Source: an uncultured Gammaproteobacteria bacterium
Lineage (GTDB): Bacteria; Patescibacteriota; Patescibacteriia; Magasanikbacterales; GWA2-37-8
Length of the DNA: 64,000 nucleotides
Reading direction: 5' to 3'
NCBI GenBank assembly: GCA_964482695.1
Contig: CAYZYP010000001.1
Span: 132,143-196,142 of the forward strand
Part shown: piece after piece, positions 2,818 through 53,058 of the stretch
Layout: each line of letters opens with the position of its first letter
How positions within the stretch are numbered: the stretch's first letter is position 1
Program-made: the position numbers and the translations under genes
Notes under the pieces: generated by a model
What the model was told of the DNA's origin: nothing
The model's database searches: none
The model's input: the letters and a program-made list of their open reading frames with translations, nothing else

Positions 2818-3951
2818 TTATGGTGATTGGTAAACAGACGTATAGTAAAAGGCAGTTTTATTAACATCAAACCGGCTAGCTTTTTCTAAAGCCTTTAAAG
2901 ATAATTCTTTTTTTAAATTACTGTTATTGACCAGTAATTTTATTTTTTCGTTAAAATCTTGGGGGCTATCTAATTTATAAAGCAAACCGGTGTTTTTAAT
3001 CATTTCATGATTGCCGCCAATATCCGTAGCTAATATTGACAAGCCAGCGTACAAAGCCTCTATTAGAGTAATAGACATGCCCTCGTATCTAGAAGGTAGA
3101 ACAAAAATATCAAAAGCTTTTAGATATTGGTAAGCATCTGGCATGTCGCCAACCAAGTAAACTGTATTTTTTAAATCTAGGTTGGTAATTAAATTTTCGT
3201 ATTTTTTCTTTTCAGGTCCGTTACCAATAATAACATAATTTAAATTAGGATAATCTTTTTTTAATTCAGACGCCTGTTTAATTAAAAATTCATAATTTTT
3301 TTGATAAGCCAGCCGACCAATGGAACCAATAACGAGTTTATTTTTAAAAGATGCACGCAATTTTTCTTCTAACATTATTTTAGCTTGTTCGCGTGAAAAG
3401 AAGTTTAATTCGTTTTGATCCAGCCCGTTGTAAATTACTACAGCATCGCGCGTTAAGCCAAGCTTTTGGCTTGCATAATGATTTTCATTACTAACGTATA
3501 TTTGTTTATCGATAAAATTTAATAGGATTTTAAAGATTAATTTATAAAAAATAATCTTTATTTTAGACTGAGTGTAGTTTGTATCTAGCATAGATAAACC
3601 ACGAAAGGTAAAAACAGTTTTTGGTTTATTTTTAGCTAGTTTGGCTGATAACGCCCCTAGCAAAGCATTGCTACTATTAAAATGGACAACATCAAAGTGG
3701 TTAGAATTTAAGAATTTTTTAAATTTCCAAATAAAACGTAAATTAGTAATTATGTTAAAAGTCCGGCCAAGGTCGGGAAATTTGGTGTAAGGTATTTGTT
3801 GTTTTTCTAATTTTTGTTGCAAGAATGTTCCCGAACCAAAGCCAACTGTCACATCGAGACCTTGTTCAATTAGTTTTTTGGCCAAATTAAACACCGATAC
3901 TTGCGCGCCGCCGGTCTCGCCTTTGGTAATAATAATAAGGATTTTTTTCAT
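2818..3951 (-). CDS. Glycosyltransferase family 4 (GT-B, group 1)
   Basis: C-terminal EGMSITLIEALYAGLSILATDIGGNHEMI motif (E-x7-E type) typical of GT4. Confidence 0.8.
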   Translation of the reverse strand: MKKILIIITKGETGGAQVSVFNLAKKLIEQGLDVTVGFGSGTFLQQKLEKQQIPYTKFPDLGRTFNIITNLRFIWKFKKFLNSNHFDVVHFNSSNALLGALSAKLAKNKPKTVFTFRGLSMLDTNYTQSKIKIIFYKLIFKILLNFIDKQIYVSNENHYASQKLGLTRDAVVIYNGLDQNELNFFSREQAKIMLEEKLRASFKNKLVIGSIGRLAYQKNYEFLIKQASELKKDYPNLNYVIIGNGPEKKKYENLITNLDLKNTVYLVGDMPDAYQYLKAFDIFVLPSRYEGMSITLIEALYAGLSILATDIGGNHEMIKNTGLLYKLDSPQDFNEKIKLLVNNSNLKKELSLKALEKASRFDVNKTAFYYTSVYQSP

Positions 3952-18843: not shown

Positions 18844-18893
18844 AGGAGGTTAAAATTTTGGCAAAGAAGCACGCGTAAATGTTATTTCTTGCA

Positions 18894-19018
18894 CCAGCGA
18901 ACACATACATCTTTTTAGGAAAAAAAGCAGTTATCCGTTTGCCTTTTTGCCTACGTTTACACTTGGCAAAAAGTTTTCCGACCACTTTTTTTCCTAAAAA
19001 GATGTATGTGTTCGCTGG
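18894..19018. repeat. Intergenic palindromic element, copy 1 (conserved core shared with 52911-53024)
   Basis: About 34-bp perfect outer inverted repeat (CCAGCGAACACATACATCTTTTTAGGAAAAAAA / rc) enclosing core AAAGCAGTTATCCGTTTGCCTTTTTGCC ... GGCAAAAAGTTTTCCGACCACTTTTTT. Confidence 0.7.
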
Positions 19019-19047
19019 TAAGTTATAAAAAGTTAGTATTTTAATTT

Positions 19048-24601: not shown

Positions 24602-24735
24602 CTGTCATCCCGAAGGAGCGTCACAGCGACTGAGGGATCTCTGTCTCAAATCAACAACGGTTTTATTTACGCAGTGAAGTGAGAGAGTACCCTTTATTGT
24701 GACAGAGATTCCTCGCCTTTGGCTCGGAATGACAA
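24602..24735. repeat. ORF-less inverted-repeat element (MITE-like) of the TTGTCATYCYGAG family
   Basis: Left arm CTGTCATCCCGAAGGAGCG...GAGGGATCTCTGTCTC; right arm GTGACAGAGATTCCTCGCC...GGCTCGGAATGACAA (imperfect reverse complement). Confidence 0.6.
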
Positions 24736-24744
24736 TTGTCTTCT

Positions 24745-25833
24745 ATGTTTAGTAAAAAATTGGCTTTGATTTATCTTTCTTATCATCCCGATCATTATCT
24801 GGATAATTTTATCAGTGGCTTGAAAAATATAGATTATCCAAAAGAAAGTTTAACAGTAGTGGTCGTTGACCAAATTCATCCAGATTTTGGCTCTTCGGAA
24901 AGTGTTTTAAAAGAAAAATTATTACCAATTGCTAACGTAGAAATACCGCCAGTTGTTATCTTGCCTCAAGAAAAAAACTTAGGTTTTGCCGGCGGCAATA
25001 ACATCGGTATTAAATGGGCATTAGACAATGGCTTTGATTATGTTTTTTTACATAATCAAGATGGTTTTGTAGAAAAAGATACAATTTTTAAATTAATTAC
25101 AGTAATGGAGAATGACAAAACAATCGGCGTGGCGCAAGCGTTGATTTTGCTTCACCCAGAAAATAATTTGATAAATAGCGCTGGCAATTGTTTCCATTAT
25201 TTAGGTTTTGGTTATAGCGGCGATTATCGAGTAGAAAAAAATAGTTTTAATCTCAGAGAAACAACAAACGTTGGGTATGCCAGTGGCGCGGCTATGATGT
25301 TGCGGTCGGATTTACTTGAAAAATTTGGTTTATTAGACGAAGATTTTGTTTCTTATCACGAGGATTTGGAATATTGTTTGCGTTTAAAGTCGGTTGGTTA
25401 TCGCGCAGTGTTAGTACCAACCGCTATTTTTTATCATCAATATAATTTTGGTAAAAACAAAGACAAATATTATTTAATGGAACGCAACCGCTATGGTTTG
25501 ATGTTGATGTACTTTAAATGGCCGACTTTGATTTTATTATTGCCAATGGCTCTAGTGGTTGAATCAGGCCTCTTGCTATTTGCCTTAAAAAGTGGTTGGA
25601 TAAAAGATAAGTTAATGGCCTATAGTTATTGGTTGCAATATAAAAATTGGCAAAAATGGCTTAATAAACGGCAAAAAATACAAACGCAGAGAGTAAAAAG
25701 TGATAAAGAAATATTAAAGTTCGCGGTTAGTAAGATAGAGTTTGAAGATATTGATAATTGGTTATTAAAATATTTAGGCAATCCGATAATGAAAATTTAT
25801 TGGATAATAACGAAAATATTAATTTGGTGGTGA
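24745..25833 (+). CDS. Glycosyltransferase family 2 with C-terminal membrane segments
   Basis: GT2 motifs (LPQEKNLGFAGGNNIG, DxD region HNQDG); start moved to first in-frame ATG, just after the repeat element. Confidence 0.75.
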   Translation: MFSKKLALIYLSYHPDHYLDNFISGLKNIDYPKESLTVVVVDQIHPDFGSSESVLKEKLLPIANVEIPPVVILPQEKNLGFAGGNNIGIKWALDNGFDYVFLHNQDGFVEKDTIFKLITVMENDKTIGVAQALILLHPENNLINSAGNCFHYLGFGYSGDYRVEKNSFNLRETTNVGYASGAAMMLRSDLLEKFGLLDEDFVSYHEDLEYCLRLKSVGYRAVLVPTAIFYHQYNFGKNKDKYYLMERNRYGLMLMYFKWPTLILLLPMALVVESGLLLFALKSGWIKDKLMAYSYWLQYKNWQKWLNKRQKIQTQRVKSDKEILKFAVSKIEFEDIDNWLLKYLGNPIMKIYWIITKILIWW

Positions 25834-25843
25834 TATTTTATCA

Positions 25844-26220
25844 TTGTCATCCCGAGCCGCAGCGAGGGATCTCTGTCTCAATTATTTATGATTAAAAGGA
25901 GGAACCATAATTATTATGTTTATATAATGGCCAGTGTAAGTTTTATAATGTATATAGGTGTTACTAATAATTTAATTAGAAGAGCAGAAGAGCACAAACA
26001 AGAAATATTAGATGGTTTTAGTAAAAAATATAAAACAAAAAAATTAGTTTATTATGAATGGTTTATTAATATCAATGATGCCATTAGAAGAGAAAAAGAA
26101 TTAAAAGGTTGGCGTAGGGAAAAGAAGATAAATTTAATTAGAAGCGCTAATCCTCGGTGGGAAGATTTGTACAAAGAGTTGATTGAGACAGAGATCCCTC
26201 GCTGCGGCTCGGGATGACAG
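25844..26220. mobile_element. Compact GIY-YIG element bounded by perfect 35-bp terminal inverted repeats
   Basis: Left end TTGTCATCCCGAGCCGCAGCGAGGGATCTCTGTCTC (25844-25879); its exact reverse complement at 26185-26220; the enclosed ORF ends inside the right repeat. Confidence 0.6.
25888..26217 (+). CDS. GIY-YIG nuclease-superfamily protein
   Basis: YYVYIMAS...MYIGVTNNLIRRAEEHK matches the GIY-YIG core (Y-VYIL ... YIG-T-NL-RR--EH). Confidence 0.8.
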   Translation: MIKRRNHNYYVYIMASVSFIMYIGVTNNLIRRAEEHKQEILDGFSKKYKTKKLVYYEWFININDAIRREKELKGWRREKKINLIRSANPRWEDLYKELIETEIPRCGSG

Positions 26221-26269: not shown

Positions 26270-27310
26270 ATGTCAAAAATAACCAAAGCAATTTTAACCG
26301 GTGGTGGCAGGGCGACAAGGTTGCGGCCGATTACTACAACAATAAACAAACACCTTATCCCGTTGGCGAACAAACCAATGATTTTTCACGCTATTGAAAA
26401 AGTGGTTAAAGCCGGTGTTAAAGAAATTTTTATTAATATTAATCCAGGAGAAACTGAACTGCAAAAGCAAGTTGGCGATGGTAGTCGGTGGGGTGTAAAA
26501 ATAGTGTTTTTTGAGCAAGAAGGCGGGCCACAAGGCATCGCGCACGTTGTGAGTCGTGCACAGAAATTTATTGGCAATGACCCGTTCATGTTTTATCTAT
26601 CTGATAATATTATTCTAGCTGATTTAAATGAAATGGTGCAGAAATTTGTCTCTGGTAGTTATGATTGTATGTTGGCCTTTGCCAAAGTATTAGATCCAGA
26701 AAGATTTGGCGTGCCCTTTTTTGATGATCAAGGGAAATTGATTGATGTGGTAGAAAAACCGCTCCAACCACCGAATAATTTGGCGGTTACTGGTATTTAT
26801 TTATATGGCCAAGGCGTATTTTTTGAAGCATATGATAATATTAAAAAAAGTGATCGCGGTGAATACGAAATTTCTAGTATTCACTCCTACTTTCTTAAAA
26901 AAGGTTTGCCGGTTGGTTATCAAGAGATTACCGGTTGGTGGAAAGACACCGGCAAGCCAGATGATTTACTAATAGCTAATGGGCTACTTATGGATCAATT
27001 AGAATTTCCAAAAGACGGCTATTTGATTGGTGAAAAAACACAGATTATTGGTAATACAAAAGTTTTTGGGCCAGCTATTATTGGTAAAAATTGTCAGTTA
27101 GAAAATTGTCAAATTGGTCAACATGTTAGTTTGGGCGATAATTGTGTTTTTAAAAATGTATCTATCAAAAATTCATTAATATTTAATGATTGTGTTTTAG
27201 ACGGCAGTTATAGTATAGAGGATAGTATTATTGGCAAAGGTTCGCGAGTAAAGAAAAACGATGGCCAACTTCACCGACTAATTTTAGGAGACAATACAGT
27301 GGTAGAATGA
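26270..27310 (+). CDS. rfbA: Glucose-1-phosphate thymidylyltransferase-like nucleotidyltransferase (long form with beta-helix C-terminus)
   Basis: AILTGGGRATRLRPITTTINKHLIP nucleotidyltransferase signature; C-terminal hexapeptide-repeat region. Confidence 0.75.
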   Translation: MSKITKAILTGGGRATRLRPITTTINKHLIPLANKPMIFHAIEKVVKAGVKEIFININPGETELQKQVGDGSRWGVKIVFFEQEGGPQGIAHVVSRAQKFIGNDPFMFYLSDNIILADLNEMVQKFVSGSYDCMLAFAKVLDPERFGVPFFDDQGKLIDVVEKPLQPPNNLAVTGIYLYGQGVFFEAYDNIKKSDRGEYEISSIHSYFLKKGLPVGYQEITGWWKDTGKPDDLLIANGLLMDQLEFPKDGYLIGEKTQIIGNTKVFGPAIIGKNCQLENCQIGQHVSLGDNCVFKNVSIKNSLIFNDCVLDGSYSIEDSIIGKGSRVKKNDGQLHRLILGDNTVVE

Positions 27311-34346: not shown

Positions 34347-34438
34347 TTGTCATTTCGAGCGAAGCGAGAAATCTCTGTCTCAATTACTGATTTTAAATAT
34401 ATCGAGACAGAGATCCCTCACTGCGGTTCGGGATGACA
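34347..34438. repeat. ORF-less inverted-repeat element (MITE-like), same family as GIY-YIG element ends
   Basis: TTGTCATTTCGAGCGAAGCGAGAAATCTCTGTCTC ... GAGACAGAGATCCCTCACTGCGGTTCGGGATGACA with only a 17-nt spacer. Confidence 0.65.
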
Positions 34439-34468
34439 TTGATTGGGATTTAAAATTTAAGATTTGCT

Positions 34469-35692
34469 ATGCGTATTCTCCAAGCTCACAAATATTTCTA
34501 TCGTCGCGCCGGAGCGGAAGCGGTTTTATTGGATACCATAATCGGGCTGAAAGCGCGCGGGCACGAGGTGGTGGAATTTTCGGTTGCTAACACAAAAAAT
34601 TTACCTTCGGAATATTCTTCGTATTTTATAAACATTGAGCCGGAACTAACTGGCATTAAATACAGCGCTTTTACTTCGTGGAAGATTTTTAAGCATTTAA
34701 TTAGTTCTAAAGAAGTTGATGCCAAATTAAGCGCGTTAGTAATGGCCGCCGAACCGCAAGTGGCTCATTTGCATAATGTTTCGCGACAGATGTCGGCTAC
34801 TACTTTTATTACTTTAAAAAAATTAAAAATTCCTATTATCATGACTGTGCACGATGTTCAACCAATGTGTCCTAACCACCGCATGATTACAAAGCATGAA
34901 TTGTGTGAACGTTGCTTTTGCCACAAATATTATAACTGCGCTTTACACAAATGCATTGACAATTCACGAGCCAAAAGTTTGGCCGGAATGATAGAAGCCT
35001 ATTACTATTACTTGCGTCGAGTTTGGAGCTTAGTAGATATATTTATTTGCCCCAGCCAGTTTATGTTGGATAAAATGACAGAATGGGGTTTTCCTAAAAG
35101 TAAATTGCGTTTAGCGCGCAATCCACAAACTGTGCCAGCAGATTGCCCGCCATTGGGTAAAAAAATCGTTTATTTGGGTCGTTTGCACGAAGAAAAAGGT
35201 ATTAGGGTGTTTATGAACGCTATCAGGCAGTTGCGCCAGTATCAAGTAGTTGTTGCTGGTGATGGCCCGGACGAAGAATTAGTAGAAAGAAATATTCGTC
35301 AGTATGGTTTAAATAACGTTGAATTAATTGGCCGGGTACAGGGCGAAAAGTGGCGCGAAGCAATGCTTCAGGCCAAAGTAGTGGTGGTGCCATCGATGTT
35401 TTACGAAAATTGTTCAATGACTGTTTTAGAAGCTTTGTCTTATGGACGTATTGTGGTGGCCGCGGATAGAGGTGGAAATAGTGAACTAATTACCAATGGT
35501 GAAACCGGCTTTTTGGCAGAAGCGGAAAATAGCGATTCGTTTGTTACTTTTATTCGTGAAGCAATGGAATTAAAAAGTGAAGAGGCGCAGGAAATTGCTA
35601 ACAATGGGCGCAGGTTGGTAATGGATAATCACAATGTGGACGGGTATTTTAAGAAGTTGGAAGAGGTATATGAAGAAGTTGTAAAATTATAA
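34469..35692 (+). CDS. Glycosyltransferase family 4
   Basis: GT-B fold; ENCSMTVLEALSYGRIVVAADRGGNSELI (E-x7-E). Confidence 0.8.
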   Translation: MRILQAHKYFYRRAGAEAVLLDTIIGLKARGHEVVEFSVANTKNLPSEYSSYFINIEPELTGIKYSAFTSWKIFKHLISSKEVDAKLSALVMAAEPQVAHLHNVSRQMSATTFITLKKLKIPIIMTVHDVQPMCPNHRMITKHELCERCFCHKYYNCALHKCIDNSRAKSLAGMIEAYYYYLRRVWSLVDIFICPSQFMLDKMTEWGFPKSKLRLARNPQTVPADCPPLGKKIVYLGRLHEEKGIRVFMNAIRQLRQYQVVVAGDGPDEELVERNIRQYGLNNVELIGRVQGEKWREAMLQAKVVVVPSMFYENCSMTVLEALSYGRIVVAADRGGNSELITNGETGFLAEAENSDSFVTFIREAMELKSEEAQEIANNGRRLVMDNHNVDGYFKKLEEVYEEVVKL

Positions 35693-36858
35693 ATTTTTAA
35701 AGTCTGTTTGGTAATATCTTGCCAATTATAATTTTTTTCCACTAAAACTTTATTTTCTTCACCAGCTTGTTCTAAGAGAGCTGGTTTTTTTATTAGTTCA
35801 ATAATTTTTTCAGCCAAAGAAGCAATACTGGCGTTATTAAACCAAAATTGATCGTCGGTAATAATTTCTTTGTGTTCGGAGATGTCGGAAACCAAGACCG
35901 GGCGAGCATGGGACATGGCTTGCAAGACAGTTATTGGTAGCCCCTCGTTTTCTGAAGGATGGACAAACAAAGCAGTATTAGCATAAAGTTCTTCTAACGT
36001 TTGGCCGCTTTGCCAGTCGGTAAAAATAATACTATTATCGCCCTTGGCGATATTTTTTAGGTCATTTAAATAATTATCGGTAAAATTAGAACCGCCAACA
36101 ATAACTAATTTGTAGTCTTGTAAAAGTTGGGGACATTGTTGACGAACAAATTGCCAAGCGGTGAGTAAATAATGCGCTCCTTTGTGCTTAACAAGTCGAG
36201 AGACCATGAGTAAGTATTTGTTTGATTGCAAATTCCATTTCTCTTCTATGACCCCTCCTACAGTCCCCCTTTTTAAGGGGAGGATAGAAAAGTTTGGTGT
36301 TCTAACACCGTTTGGAATGTAGGTGGTTTGTTTTTTGTATTCATTTAAATAATAGCTTTGCAATGTTTTGGAAACAACAATTGTTTGGTGAGCAAATTTT
36401 ATAGCTGTCCATTCGCCTAGGCGCAACATTAAGCGCGCCAGCCAGTTCCATTTTTGATGATAACGATCTAAACAATGAGAAGTGGTAATTACTTTGGCGC
36501 TTGGCAAAAAAATACGAGGGATAAAACTTAACAAAGACGGACCAACACCATGATAATGAATAATATCCGGTTTTTGAAATAAGGCGTGGATGGTAGAAGT
36601 TAAAGTGTGGGTGATAGCGTCTAAATGTTTGGTGCGCAAGCTAGGAGTATAAATTATTTTTATACCATTAATTTTAGTAATATTTTTTGGGCTATACCAT
36701 TTACGAGCGTAAACCAAAATATCATGGCCGTTTTTTGCCAATTCTGTTGCCAGCTCTTCTACGTGGCGCTCTATGCCGCCATAAATAGCCGGGATTCCTT
36801 TTTGTCCAAGCATGATAATTTTCATGTTTTTTGTGCTTAAAACAGGCAACAATAGCAC
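35629..36858 (-). CDS. Glycosyltransferase family 4 carrying an in-frame GC-rich hairpin insertion
   Basis: GT4 motifs (NEGLPITVLQAMSHARPVLVSDISEHKEII); insertion encodes ...LPLKRGTVGGVIE... at 36250-36290. Confidence 0.75.
   Translation of the reverse strand: MLLLPVLSTKNMKIIMLGQKGIPAIYGGIERHVEELATELAKNGHDILVYARKWYSPKNITKINGIKIIYTPSLRTKHLDAITHTLTSTIHALFQKPDIIHYHGVGPSLLSFIPRIFLPSAKVITTSHCLDRYHQKWNWLARLMLRLGEWTAIKFAHQTIVVSKTLQSYYLNEYKKQTTYIPNGVRTPNFSILPLKRGTVGGVIEEKWNLQSNKYLLMVSRLVKHKGAHYLLTAWQFVRQQCPQLLQDYKLVIVGGSNFTDNYLNDLKNIAKGDNSIIFTDWQSGQTLEELYANTALFVHPSENEGLPITVLQAMSHARPVLVSDISEHKEIITDDQFWFNNASIASLAEKIIELIKKPALLEQAGEENKVLVEKNYNWQDITKQTLKIYNFTTSSYTSSNFLKYPSTL
36250..36290. repeat. GC-rich hairpin mini-element (CCCCTTtttAAGGGGAGGATAG), in-frame in GT4 gene
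   Basis: 6-bp stem CCCCTT/AAGGGG with 3-nt loop; the same motif occurs at 39041-39062 and 38356-38372. Confidence 0.5.
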
Positions 36859-36870
36859 ATCCTAGCCTTT

Positions 36871-36915
36871 TTGTCAAGGGTGGGGTTGACAAGTTTGGCT
36901 AAAATATGCTATTAT
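36871..36915 (+). promoter_or_regulatory. Sigma70-like promoter with overlapping operator-like inverted repeat
   Basis: TTGTCAAgggtggggTTGACAA inverted repeat; TTGACA (36886-36891) - 18 nt - TATTAT (36910-36915). Confidence 0.5.
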
Positions 36916-36971
36916 TCGCCACAAGTTTTCTATCTCTAACCGTTTTTTCTTGGAAAGGAAGAGGAAAAAGA

Positions 36972-37175
36972 ATGTCGAGACCGACGACAAGAGAACGAGA
37001 CCACCTCGATCTGGAACTGGCTCAGCTAGAAGATCTCCGGGCAAATGATTTTACTTTGCCTCCAGATCTTGATCTGGACGAAGTGCTCGGCAAAGAAGGT
37101 TTCAAAGGATTTACCTTAGGACAGGCTGGGTTGCTCACCTGCAAGCCCAAGCCGTCGCGGCGGCTGCGTTCCTAG
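36972..37175 (+). CDS. 67-aa hypothetical protein, foreign (GC-rich) codon usage
   Basis: GAGGA SD 6 nt before ATG; MSRPTTRERDHLDLELAQLEDL...; CTG/GAC/CTC codons dominate. Confidence 0.4.
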   Translation: MSRPTTRERDHLDLELAQLEDLRANDFTLPPDLDLDEVLGKEGFKGFTLGQAGLLTCKPKPSRRLRS

Positions 37176-37187
37176 GTGGATCCAAAA

Positions 37188-37252
37188 CCCATACCGCTCG
37201 TGCGCTTCTTGGCCCTTTCGAGGGCTGACTTGCGTCGGGCGGTATGGGGTTG
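37188..37252 (+). other. Long GC-rich nested hairpin (terminator or structured RNA)
   Basis: 10-bp outer stem CCCATACCGC/GCGGTATGGG enclosing GCCCTttcgAGGGC; followed by UUGUUCGUUCU. Confidence 0.35.
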
Positions 37253-37492
37253 TTCGTTCTGCCTCGCATGCCGTAGCTTTGCGAAGCGAAACGAAGGCAT
37301 GTGGATAACTCTGTTTGACTATGCTGTAACAGTATGATAGTTTAAGAATAATATATTAAGACTTTATGAATTTTAATTTACATACAACCCCAACCTGGAC
37401 AAAGCGTACTATTTTGGTAAAACGCTATTTTGGTTTTTGGGGTGAGGTGTGTAAAATTAAAAAATAAAAAGTTTACAAAATAAATAAACACA

Positions 37493-37530
37493 ATCACCCT
37501 GAAGGCCAATAGAGCGTCAGGGTGATTTTT
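37493..37530. terminator. Rho-independent terminator (bidirectional)
   Basis: ATCACCCTGA-14 nt loop-TCAGGGTGAT + TTTTT; A/T-rich tract also on the opposite side. Confidence 0.65.
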
Positions 37531-37602
37531 AAACCACAAATTTTTACACGAATTAACACAAATATGGAATTTAATTCGTGATTAGTGTAAATTTGTGGTT
37601 CG
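37531..37602. promoter_or_regulatory. Long imperfect palindrome (operator / cruciform candidate)
   Basis: AACCACAAATTT...GAATTAA / TTAATTC...AAATTTGTGGTT arms (12 + 7 bp matches) around an 11-nt centre. Confidence 0.35.
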
Positions 37603-37719
37603 TTCTTTACAAAAAAGTGTTTAGCCAGAGGAAAAGATTTTAAAAAATGTTTTTCTTTGGCTGGGCAGTTGAGTCTAGCATTTCAGGTCGGCACAAAGCC
37701 GGCCATCAAGGAGCGAATC

Positions 37720-37893
37720 ATGGAAACCACCGAAAACACCCCCCAGACCACCAACCAGTCACCTCGCCCTGTATTGGACGCTCACCACGAGCGGGTGATA
37801 CTTCTCTTCGGAAAGAAGAAAGTGTCCCACCAGCTCAAGGTGGATCCGTACACAGGTGAGGTGCTGGAGGTTCCGGCCTTTCTTCTGCGCTGA
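37720..37893 (+). CDS. 57-aa hypothetical protein, GC-rich codon usage
   Basis: AAGGAG SD 6 nt before ATG; METTENTPQTTNQSPRPVLDAHHERVILLFGKKKVSHQLKVDPYTGEVLEV... Confidence 0.4.
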   Translation: METTENTPQTTNQSPRPVLDAHHERVILLFGKKKVSHQLKVDPYTGEVLEVPAFLLR

Positions 37894-38059
37894 GCAGAGG
37901 AAGCCGGCCACGTGGTCTGGGCAACGGCGCGCAAAACATCGTGCGCCGTCCCATTAGAGAATATAATTAGATTGTTAGTTTATATTCTGTAATGGCGCCA
38001 GGAACTTTGTATGTTCGTGGCAAAAAATAATAAAAATTGCCGAGAAAGGAGAAAAAAAC

Positions 38060-38212
38060 TTGGCAAAAGAGAAATGCAAAGTCTGCCCGCATTGCGGGCA
38101 ACAGTTCAAAAAGAAGCATGGGAACAGGTGCCCAGTTTGCGGCCGATGTCGTTATGACAAAACCGGTTGCAAAAACGGAGTTTCGGCTTCAAGCTCAAAA
38201 AAGGAGAAGTAA
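38060..38212 (+). CDS. 50-aa Cys-rich zinc-ribbon peptide (TTG start)
   Basis: AGGAG 8 nt upstream of TTG; translation LAKEKCKVCPHCGQQFKKKHGNRCPVCGRCRYDKTGCKNG... (CxxCxxC-x11-CxxCxxC); stop immediately before a 12-bp hairpin terminator. Confidence 0.45.
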   Translation: MAKEKCKVCPHCGQQFKKKHGNRCPVCGRCRYDKTGCKNGVSASSSKKEK

Positions 38213-38217
38213 AAAAT

Positions 38218-38246
38218 CCACCCCGACACCAAACGTGTCGGGGTGG
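38218..38246. terminator. Hairpin terminator
   Basis: CCACCCCGACAC-caaac-GTGTCGGGGTGG; A6 tract upstream gives a U-tract on the minus strand. Confidence 0.6.
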
Positions 38247-38337
38247 TACGAACTTCCTTTATATGATATTTTGTAAAAACAAAGTAATTTTTTGGTTTTA
38301 AAAATGTTTAAAATATGGTATAATAATTTCGTTTTAG

Positions 38338-38400
38338 ACTCCTCCTTAATCCCCCCCCCTCTGTAAGGGGAGAAGAGTGTATTCCTAATGCTGTACTCTT
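38338..38400. repeat. GC-rich hairpin mini-element in 5'-UTR of membrane-protein gene
   Basis: CCCCT-ctgta-AGGGGAG plus AAGAGT...ACTCTT stem, downstream of extended -10 TGgTATAAT (38316-38324). Confidence 0.45.
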
Positions 38401-38417: not shown

Positions 38418-39389
38418 ATGTATTTATTTATAGCCATACTCGGTTACATTTTTCTCGCTGTTGTCAACATTTTTGATAAATTTATCCTTACCAAAGCGAT
38501 CCCCAAGCCAATTGTGGTTGTTTTTTATTCCACGGCTTTGATATTTCCAATATTTTTATTAGTACCTTTTGGCGCCGGTTATCTGGGAAATTGGCTATCT
38601 TATGTAATTGCCGCTGTGGGGGGTGTATTTTTCGGCCTTGCTTTGTGGGCCATGTTTATTGGTTTTCAAAAAAGCGAAATAAGCCACGCCGGGCCGCTTG
38701 TTGGCGCCACAACGCCATTTTTTGTTTTATTTTTAAGCCAGCTATTTTTAAAAGAACAATTAACAAGTTATCAGATCGTTGGCATTATTATCTTAATAAT
38801 TGGCTCGTTGATTATCTCTGTTGAAAAAAGCAAAGATCATAATGGCTGGCATAGCGGCATGTTGTGGTTAATTCTCGCCGGTTTATTATATGCCGTTTCT
38901 CATGTTGCTTCTAAATATATTTATGACATTTATGGTTTTTATAGCGGCCTGGTTTGGACGCGTGGGTTTATGGGATTGTTTGGGATACTACTATTAGTTT
39001 GGCCAGAGGTGAGACGAGAAATATTTAAGATAAAAAATCCTCCCCTTACTAAGGGGAGGATAGGGAGGGGTCTGGCAGAAGAGACCTCCCCCTCCCCCCT
39101 CCTTGCTAAGGAGGGGACGACGAAAATCAGGCAATTCATCCTTGTTTTCTCTAGCCGTCTATTAGGCGTCATTGGTACGCTTTTAATTCAGTACGCTATT
39201 GCCATTGGCAGTGTAACAATTGTCAACGCGTTAGTTGGTGTTCAGTTTGCTTTTTTAATTATTATAGTAGCTTTGCTTTCAAAATTTTTGCCTAAACTAT
39301 TTAAAGAAGACTATAATAAAGGGGAAATGGCGTGGGAATTGGTGGCAGTAGTAGTTATCGCGGTTGGGCTGACAATGGTTATAACATAG
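38418..39389 (+). CDS. EamA/DMT-like membrane protein carrying an in-frame 28-aa hairpin-element insertion
   Basis: Ten hydrophobic helices; the low-complexity insert KNPPLTKGRIGRGLAEETSPSPLLAKEGTT is encoded by the 39038-39122 element. Confidence 0.65.
   Translation: MYLFIAILGYIFLAVVNIFDKFILTKAIPKPIVVVFYSTALIFPIFLLVPFGAGYLGNWLSYVIAAVGGVFFGLALWAMFIGFQKSEISHAGPLVGATTPFFVLFLSQLFLKEQLTSYQIVGIIILIIGSLIISVEKSKDHNGWHSGMLWLILAGLLYAVSHVASKYIYDIYGFYSGLVWTRGFMGLFGILLLVWPEVRREIFKIKNPPLTKGRIGRGLAEETSPSPLLAKEGTTKIRQFILVFSSRLLGVIGTLLIQYAIAIGSVTIVNALVGVQFAFLIIIVALLSKFLPKLFKEDYNKGEMAWELVAVVVIAVGLTMVIT
39038..39122. repeat. Composite GC-rich hairpin element (three CCCCT...AGGGG hairpins), in-frame in coding sequence
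   Basis: TCCCCTTActAAGGGGAGGATAG; GGGGTCT...AGACCTCCCC; CCCCTCCTTgcTAAGGAGGGG. Confidence 0.55.
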
Positions 39390-52750: not shown

Positions 52751-52910
52751 TCATAGGTTTTGCTAATGCTGGCAGGGTTAACCTGTTTAGCACCGTAAGG
52801 ACAGGACATGTCCTGTCCTACAACCAACAAGCACCTCTCGCGCAAGCGGGGGGTGTTTTGTTTTTTTGCTTTGACAGTTAGAGGATTTTAGTTTAAAATA
52901 ACATCAAGTA

Positions 52911-53024
52911 TTAGTGGCAAATACATATTTTTTTATAAAAAAGCAGTTATCCGTTTGCCTTTTTGCCTTTCGGCAAAAAGTTTTCCGACTACTTTTTTAT
53001 AAAAAAATATGTATTTGCCACTAA
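52911..53024. repeat. Intergenic palindromic element, copy 2
   Basis: 32-bp perfect outer inverted repeat TTAGTGGCAAATACATATTTTTTTATAAAAAA / rc enclosing the same core as copy 1 with a shorter inner loop (GCCTTTTTGCC-tttc-GGCAAAAAG). Confidence 0.7.
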
Positions 53025-53058
53025 TATAAAGCGTAAATTTTTTTTATTAATATTTTTT

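Follow-up and report, generated by a model that had tools for sequence, protein, structure and literature searches.

The 64-kb window examined here, that is, the whole 64,000-nucleotide stretch of contig CAYZYP010000001.1 from an uncultured bacterium of the order Magasanikbacterales (Patescibacteria), carries on its plus strand, at 38418..39389, a gene for a 323-aa transporter of the EamA/DMT fold, as assigned by Pfam (EamA, PF00892, E = 3.4e-12, in the first half of the protein), AlphaFold2 and Foldseek. Inside this gene lies a GC-rich palindromic element of 82 nt (39037-39118), through which the open reading frame (ORF) runs without a stop, the translation including ...KNPPLTKGRIGRGLAEETSPSPLLAKEGTT... 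Further copies of the 36-nt unit from which the element is built are found in a GT4 glycosyltransferase gene and in the inferred 5' untranslated region (5'-UTR) of the EamA gene, and all three loci fall within 2.9 kb. Comparison with homologous sequences indicates that the loop encoded by the element is an in-frame insertion and not an ancestral feature of the transporter.

The element is an inverted doublet of the 36-nt unit, with 10 nt between the two copies. Unit L (39037..39072, plus strand), delimited by nhmmer and by the fold, reads ATCCTCCCCTTACTAAGGGGAGGATAGGGAGGGGTC and consists of hairpin 1 followed by a second G-rich arm, GGGAGGGGTC. It is separated by the spacer TGGCAGAAGA (39073..39082), which forms the loop of hairpin 2 in the fold, from unit R (39083..39118), an inverted copy on the minus strand; on the plus strand unit R reads GACCTCCCCCTCCCCCCTCCTTGCTAAGGAGGGGAC and comprises a C-rich arm, which pairs with unit L, and hairpin 3. 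Hairpins 1 and 3 belong to the units themselves, while hairpin 2 results from the pairing of the outer arms of L and R. Each unit is a hairpin made of a C-arm, a loop and a G-arm (CCTCCCCTTA-n-TAAGGGGAGG), to which an additional G-rich arm is joined; the stretch common to the window copies, ATCCTCCCCTTAnnnAGGGG...GGAGGGGTC, extends beyond the motif initially recognised. The reverse complement of unit R is identical to unit L at 25 of 36 positions without gaps, a value reached by none of 5000 shuffles, and the changes in the stem are compensatory (CCTCCCC/GGGGAGG in L, CCCCTCC/GGAGGGG in R).

RNA folding of 39020-39140 returned three stems and no more, with an energy of -53.1 kcal/mol (z = -3.96) that was matched by none of 200 shuffles preserving dinucleotides. 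The first-pass annotation, made from the sequence alone, had described one triple-hairpin element of 85 nt at 39038-39122: the three hairpins are borne out by the sequence and by the fold, whereas the single element is really the inverted doublet of 82 nt, with hairpin 2 formed between its units. Perfect GC-rich hairpins are rare in this window of 36% GC, with only 13 in 64 kb, several of them terminator-like; two of the 13 lie inside the element. Since the EamA protein and three DNA segments are identical in contigs of three independent groundwater assemblies, the element is no assembly artefact. An internal start served by the perfect Shine-Dalgarno (SD) sequence TAAGGAGG in hairpin 3 was considered and rejected, as no ATG, GTG or TTG occurs in the next 15 nt.

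At the protein level, the element encodes residues 207-234 (28 aa) in the loop between transmembrane helices (TM) 7 and 8, and the net excess over the usual loop of the family is about 21 aa, in agreement with the original description of a low-complexity loop of roughly 28 aa in a transporter-like protein. The AlphaFold2 model, built on a 29-sequence alignment, has 10 TM helices (mean pLDDT 87, pTM 0.86), and its only segment with pLDDT below 50 is formed by residues 211-231, within a coil at 203-235; the insert is thus predicted to lie in the only disordered loop of the protein. Foldseek matched the model to the CMP-sialic acid transporter CST (6i1r), SLC35B1, YddG (5i20) and LicB with E values of 1e-5 to 1e-6, and also to Vrg4, the overall fold being that of DMT transporters. 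As regards topology, which the first-pass annotation had proposed to predict, two indications diverge. The lysines and arginines number 14 in loops 1, 3, 5, 7 and 9 (insert excluded) versus one in the remaining loops, which by the positive-inside rule suggests a cytoplasmic position for the inserted loop, but in solved DMT transporters both termini are on the cytoplasmic side, an arrangement that would place the TM7-8 loop outside. The identity to the syntenic orthologue L001, equal to 84, 93 and 59% at codon positions 1, 2 and 3, shows that purifying selection acts on the EamA gene. In all likelihood the transporter has kept its function and gained one floppy loop, and the consequences for the gene itself would be small.

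The case for an insertion relies on the EamA homologues, which were recovered from Patescibacteria, several of them labelled Magasanikbacteria. The distance between the SHVxxKY and QYA motifs is 64-79 residues in 89 of the 92 homologues (mode 69) and 90 in the window protein, which is the longest; the loop is consequently absent from almost all of them, as the alignment suggested in the first-pass annotation was meant to reveal. In the DNA of L004 (66% identity) the site carries no unit, the loop being of the ordinary AT-rich kind. In L001 (80% identity) unit R is found alone, identical to that of the window at 32 of 36 positions, and the 3-nt loop of the hairpin accounts for three of the four differences. 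Unit R was therefore already present before the window and L001 lineages separated, and unit L was either gained after this separation or lost in L001; the presence of unit R alone in L001 implies that the two units have different histories. No distant orthologues sharing the loop with AT-rich codons, the pattern that would have argued for an ancestral origin, were found among the homologues, and the central proposal of a palindromic repeat inserted in-frame into coding sequence, with copies elsewhere, is supported by both the homologue and the DNA comparison.

The same loop has received other inserts in related genes. In L003 (protein P0002, 82% identity; locus approximately 810-845) the site holds an unrelated G-run, GGGGAATGGGGAAAGGGGAATGGGGAAAGGGGAG, on the coding strand. 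In this run five G4 tracts alternate with spacers of 3 nt, making a textbook G-quadruplex motif, and its translation is GNGERGMGKGE. The more distant P0021 (L137, 56% identity) carries a separate, independently acquired unit-like hairpin in this loop of EamA, and many closer homologues are without one; two unit copies are present in L137 (977-1007 and 1650-1680), identical at 37 of 43 positions and 0.67 kb apart, one of them 16 nt upstream of the start codon and the other in the TM7-8 loop, mirroring the 5'-UTR and loop layout of the window. P0090 (L138) carries, probably in-frame, a segment resembling a second GC-rich repeat family of the window in a different loop of an EamA homologue. The long loop of P0019 was also considered as a related insert and set aside, being neither GC-rich nor structured and hence of different origin.

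The other window copies were located with CCCCTNNNTAAGGGGAGGA, which at up to two mismatches occurs at 36266, 38356 and 39038/39042 (expected 0.00 from 100 shuffles), confirming the recurrence of the core motif in the GT4 gene and in the EamA 5'-UTR already reported from the first inspection. The GT4 gene (35629..36825, minus strand; 398 aa from an ATG at 36825) has the Pfam domains Glycos_transf_1 and Glyco_transf_4, and its product is identical to a protein in public data (P0121). Copy b, a single unit on the minus strand (36250..36285), lies in-frame in the interdomain linker and encodes ...SILPLKRGTVGGV... The linker counts 30 aa here versus 21-23 aa in 81 of 85 homologues, copy b adding 8-9 residues. 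The motif initially noticed in this gene is thus real; the gene's nearest orthologue, of the L001 type, is not an empty site but has a 33-aa linker owed to a different GC-rich palindromic segment, which resembles the second repeat family of the window (alignment score reached by 7 of 2000 shuffles). In EamA, unit L begins at codon position 2, and in GT4, copy b begins at codon position 3, the same unit DNA yielding PPLTKGRIGRG in the former and ILPLKRGTVGG in the latter; as the GT4 copy is read in a different frame, the likeness is in the DNA and not in the peptide.

Copy c, a degenerate unit (approximately 38337..38376, minus strand), is antisense to transcription in the inferred 5'-UTR, between a promoter-like TTTAAA-16-TATAAT (38297-38324) and the EamA ATG at 38418. 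Found in two genes and a 5'-UTR, with either orientation and in more than one codon phase, the unit is a DNA repeat rather than a peptide motif. Unit L, copy b and copy c appear to be specific to the window lineage, loss in L001 being the alternative for unit L. The inserts found in P0021/L137, P0090, L003 and the GT4 linkers show that these loops and linkers were struck repeatedly and independently, apparently by at least two GC-rich palindromic families.

The second of these families, TGTCATCCCGAGCCGCAGCGAGGGATCTCTGTCTCAAT, is present in the window at 24696-24733, 25840-25882, 26182-26219 and 34401-34443; none of the four copies lies within a gene, and the gap separating the genes 24736..25833 and 26270..27310 is bracketed by two of them. 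The three loci with unit copies flank a 1.4-kb region between the GT4 and EamA genes (36900-38300) with 50-65% GC, compared with 36% in the genome. Small ORFs lie in this region, among them 37657..37893 (78 aa) and 38060..38212 (50 aa, rich in Cys and resembling a zinc ribbon), along with long GC-rich hairpins around 37190-37250 and, at 38218-38246, a strong hairpin of terminator-like form, without any Rfam match; the L001 relative has a different gene there.

On a broader scale, a pattern covering all three window copies was scanned over 596 Gb, with one genome per species, and at least 120 stretches matched. The counts reported from here on (129 copies, 120 loci and 52 classifiable copies) are those among the matches listed. 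These span Cyanobacteria, Patescibacteria, Nitrospirota, Omnitrophota, Bacteroidota, Clostridia, Proteobacteria, Chloroflexota and others, many of the cyanobacterial ones belonging to Nostoc, Scytonema, Microcoleus and Coleofasciculus. Chance alone would yield roughly 35-100 matches in 596 Gb, so the raw number was discarded as evidence and the conservation of positions left free by the pattern was used instead. The C before the stem is present in 120/129 copies, the AGG completing the stem in 117/129 and the GGT after the second G-arm in 88/129; both downstream features occur jointly in 92/129, where chance would give about 0.1%. The units are alike in length and in architecture over their 36 nt. 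Furthermore, an nhmmer profile built from foreign-phylum copies only recovered unit L (39038-39070, E = 3.5e-10, 36 bits), copy b (36284-36252, E = 1e-5), copy c (38373-38352, E = 5e-4) and, weakly, unit R, and nothing else in the 64 kb.

In AT-rich loci, intergenic units lie between tandem (31), convergent (9) or, less often, divergent (2) genes, frequently tens of nt beyond the 3' end of a gene, and 10 of the 52 classifiable copies are intragenic. The hosts of intragenic units comprise UvrB (three cases), RF2/prfB, TsaD (two units), a histidine kinase, a DnaB with inteins and GT4, and the units are inserted in both orientations and at least three frames, giving peptides such as PPLTKGR, LPLxRGG or SPYxGE. 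Nine of the AT-rich intragenic copies keep the frame and at most one breaks it, where about 1:2 would be expected without selection. This frame preservation implies that the units are read through and rules out translational bypassing or splicing of the insert.

In two different Patescibacteria (L066 and L071) the UvrB unit occupies one and the same site, immediately ahead of the DFLTxIDESH motif; L123 has one at another UvrB site, and in L046 a unit lies 13 nt upstream of uvrA. An enrichment of UvrA near the units was considered and dropped, since a BLAST cluster in 9 of the 120 loci consists mostly of generic ABC ATPases and only L046 and L123 carry UvrA. Many copies feature a canonical G-quadruplex motif beside a competing hairpin. 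As a universal constraint the G-quadruplex was nevertheless rejected: the commonest variant, GGGGAGGGTTGGGGAGGGG, fits the motif, while the window copies (GGGGAGGATAGGGAGGGG) and a 37-nt class (GGGGAGGTTAGGAGGGG) do not. Viral contigs were likewise discarded as a vector, with only nine matches, which could not be set in proportion to the genome scan. Some single genomes hold several near-identical copies whose flanks are also identical. In L021 and L050, contigs of Nitrospirota and Bdellovibrio-like metagenome-assembled genomes (MAGs), the unit sits within a longer repeat with identical flanks of about 90 nt, present two to three times per contig at spacings of approximately 700 to 1,500 bp; the same repeat in MAGs assigned to different phyla could be a shared mobile element or a binning error.

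The whole of these observations is, in our judgement, likely to reflect a non-autonomous, REP-like palindromic repeat (REP, repetitive extragenic palindromic) that landed in a permissive coding part and was tolerated there. The insert keeps the frame, has no stop and occupies what is predicted to be the single variable, disordered loop of a 10-TM transporter. With its CCN, GGN, CTN, AAG and AGG codons, the repeat would be translated in most frames, on either strand, into a flexible peptide rich in Pro, Gly, Leu, Lys and Arg, a property that would make the family unusually harmless inside proteins. Selection would remove the insertions that break the frame or the fold and leave the harmless ones. 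Spread would most likely proceed via a single-stranded DNA hairpin, recognised in trans by a structure-recognising enzyme for which HUH/Y1 transposases of the RAYT or IS200 type offer a precedent, and would tend to land nearby, as suggested by the three loci within 2.9 kb and by the two neighbouring, similar copies of L137. The element is probably selfish and tolerated.

Several results weigh against this explanation. A regex search of the 64-kb window returned no RAYT-like ORF, and no gene family recurs beside the units in the 120 loci. The tag typical of REPs, a tetranucleotide of the form GT[AG]G, or alternatively CGTC, at 0-2 nt from the foot of the hairpin (PMC6006769, PMC3733652), is absent in 124 of the 129 copies and from unit L and copy c; in copy b a GTAG precedes the second G-arm, and on the minus strand of unit R a CGTC stands 2 nt from hairpin 3, at a place where L001 has TGTC. 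Among the relatives there is no near-identical empty-site allele, the closest being only 80-82% identical. Moreover, the agreement between window and L001 over unit R (32/36, or 32/33 outside the loop) exceeds the gene average of 79%, which hints at constraint or gene conversion rather than pure neutrality. To these points are to be added the parallel layout in L137 and the likeness of the units across phyla, both discussed below.

Some further data concern the means of mobilisation. Two RAYTs (Pfam Y1_Tnp) occur in 0.9 Mb of flanking sequence, in L036 and L070, and the latter is flanked by a different, GTGG-tagged REP. In L070, a Parcubacteria genome of the Candidate Phyla Radiation (CPR), REPs composed of GTGG + CGGAGTCCCCACAGGGAGACTCCG at 2400-2450 and 3030-3065 enclose the RAYT-like Y1 transposase, which has the motifs NHIH and YIHNNP. 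A RAYT accompanied by its own REPs shows that CPR genomes can carry canonical REPtrons; as a link to the 36-nt unit this enzyme was rejected, given the different REP at the RAYT inspected. No direct repeats flanking the three window copies were seen on inspection, the flanks of the orthologues being too diverged for exact boundaries. With 36-82 nt, the size falls at or under the range of MITEs (miniature transposable elements with inverted repeats; 70-300 bp). The window also has a long AT-rich inverted repeat at 18893-19019 and 52909-53026, whose copies, both intergenic, are 85-88% alike, with arms of 35-39 nt and a spacer of 40-57 nt; it looks like a third, MITE-like family.

Among the alternatives, an unlikely one is that the hairpins are cis-regulatory RNA or DNA structures adopted by the host, the 5'-UTR copy and the doublet tuning EamA translation, mRNA stability or antisense transcription in a glycosylation gene cluster. 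The great stability of the fold (-53 kcal/mol, z = -4) is consistent with this idea, as is unit R, whose stems are kept between the window and L001 while the 3-nt loop is wholly changed. The predicted 5'-UTR fold pairs an anti-SD-like arm, CUCCUCCUUAA, with a purine-rich stretch just upstream of the AUG, and on the minus strand hairpin 1 (39037-39061) is followed by TTTTTATCTT, an arrangement which scores as intrinsic-terminator-like and could stop antisense transcription through EamA. A unit in the 5'-UTR and another in the loop are also found in the distant L137 orthologue, which could mean a regulatory role; yet near-identity holds within the L137 pair and not between it and the window copies, so that local duplication fits better than conservation. 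Furthermore, five of the seven orthologues examined are without a 5'-UTR unit and most are without a loop unit, and the units stand in both orientations to transcription, in the window as in other genomes, which speaks against an RNA role tied to one strand. On the sense strand none of the hairpins is followed by a U-run, for which reason an intrinsic terminator was also rejected there. Rfam gave no family at gathering score for the window or for 18 loci belonging to other phyla, only sub-threshold generic hairpins at chance level (E <= 1).

It is still less probable that the repeats are not mobile at all, with C4/G4 palindromes arising independently through slippage, template switching or biased repair and the likeness across phyla being convergence. 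The low complexity of the sequence, the failure to find a transposase in the window or beside the units, the raw match number not exceeding the rough chance estimate and the different GC-rich inserts gained by the same EamA loop (the G-run of L003, the second repeat family elsewhere) would all suit such a process. This reading is countered by the strong conservation of the unfixed positions, by the length and architecture shared over 36 nt, by the near-identical copies with identical flanks within single genomes and by the REP-like placement downstream of genes. That the loop is an adaptive binding or regulatory feature, with the hairpins a by-product of Pro/Gly-rich codons, is very improbable and already largely refuted: the window protein and P0001 share a conserved TSPSPLL(A/R)KEGT peptide and the loop is charged and probably cytoplasmic, but it is absent from 89 of 92 homologues, AlphaFold2 predicts no structure for it, the same DNA gives an unrelated peptide in another frame in GT4 and is untranslated in the 5'-UTR, and it matches a profile from intergenic copies of other phyla.

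For the tolerated REP-like repeat, the near-identity of the 36-nt unit across phyla is an aspect that none of the tests run explains, and the point most worth pursuing beyond the EamA gene. As a tentative proposal, and one with the odds against it, cCCTCCCCTTAnnnAGGGGAGG-n3-GGGAGGGGT might represent a single, undescribed pan-bacterial hairpin-repeat family, extending over at least eight phyla, maintained by a shared recognition mechanism, safe for proteins and seeding disordered loops in essential ones. The mechanism could be a widely transferred hairpin-specific enzyme or a conserved host machine reading the structure. If this were true, the unit would seed disordered loops in UvrB, RF2, TsaD and transporters and would be one source of lineage-specific insertions in the streamlined Patescibacteria; a single family would also challenge the view of REP-type repeats as species-specific and provide, in 36 nt, a tractable system to study what recognises and spreads hairpins and how often new loops arise. 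Independently of this, the EamA gene is a clean example from the CPR of repeat DNA turned into protein sequence, and a well-dated one, given that one unit is shared with an 80%-identical orthologue and three copies are lineage-specific. In the annotation of MAGs, such units create spurious Pro/Gly-rich hypothetical proteins and odd length variants of conserved genes.

The behaviour itself has precedents. The unit sequence was not found in a search of the prokaryote literature, which did not cover Elhai et al. (2008), the likeliest place of a prior description. The small dispersed repeats (SDRs) of that study are said, in part through later papers that cite it (PMC4390886, PMC3116915), to be mobile repeats of 21-27 nt in heterocyst-forming cyanobacteria, some of them palindromic and placed even inside conserved genes, with eight published consensus sequences. 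The resemblance lies in the very small size, the position within conserved genes and the many cyanobacterial matches of the unit; the SDRs are not known to have been described outside cyanobacteria. One SDR family may be the same 36-nt unit.

Short GC-rich inserts inside the genes of an AT-rich genome are also known from the mitochondria of Magnusiomyces, where the mobile byp elements interrupt the frame and are skipped by the ribosomes. The unit differs from them in that it keeps the frame (nine copies versus at most one) and the insert is read through.

A further parallel is offered by the Rickettsia palindromic elements (RPEs), in-frame palindromic insertions reported by Ogata et al. (2000, 2002), as far as they are recounted in a review of MITEs (PMC10969869). 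As in the window, these are in-frame palindromic repeats in unrelated functional genes of an AT-rich, reduced genome, and the peptide is positioned compatibly with the fold. Elements of the RPE-1 type are about 100-150 bp long, with a conserved peptide and a fixed frame, whereas the unit measures 36 nt (82 nt as a doublet) and is read in several frames and both orientations; its sequence is unrelated, it is not confined to one genus and its hosts are not Rickettsia. The first-pass annotation was right that its motif differs from the Rickettsia elements, but in-frame insertion is not peculiar to them, and since intragenic REPs are documented in several phyla (PMC3733652), the behaviour is less novel than had been implied.

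REPs and REPINs (PMC3733652; Bertels & Rainey 2011, PMC3116915) are also a close match. They are dispersed, imperfect palindromes of 20-40 nt, often in inverted doublets, and the unit is likewise an imperfect palindrome, with a stem of 10-11 bp, forming inverted doublets in L+R and again in L104. A literature search returned nothing on REPs or RAYTs in CPR, and the host here is a small-genome member of the Patescibacteria; the unit also departs from REPs in having no cognate RAYT identified and, in nearly all copies, no tag, as seen above. Moreover, REPs are described as species-specific (PMC6006769), while the unit is near-identical in many phyla. In placement the two agree closely: both are found chiefly between genes in tandem or convergent arrangement, and a minority is wholly intragenic and does not break the frame. 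Di Nocera et al. (2013, PMC3733652) reported REPs wholly inside ORFs in several species, more than half of them dimers encoding 20-30 aa and many in excinuclease ABC and repair genes, and a survey of HUH endonucleases noted that frame-preserving REP insertions are tolerated in loops and linkers (PMC6006769). The doublet in the EamA loop, the single unit in the GT4 linker and the units found three times in uvrB and once before uvrA echo these reports, including the remark that intragenic REPs favour excision-repair genes.

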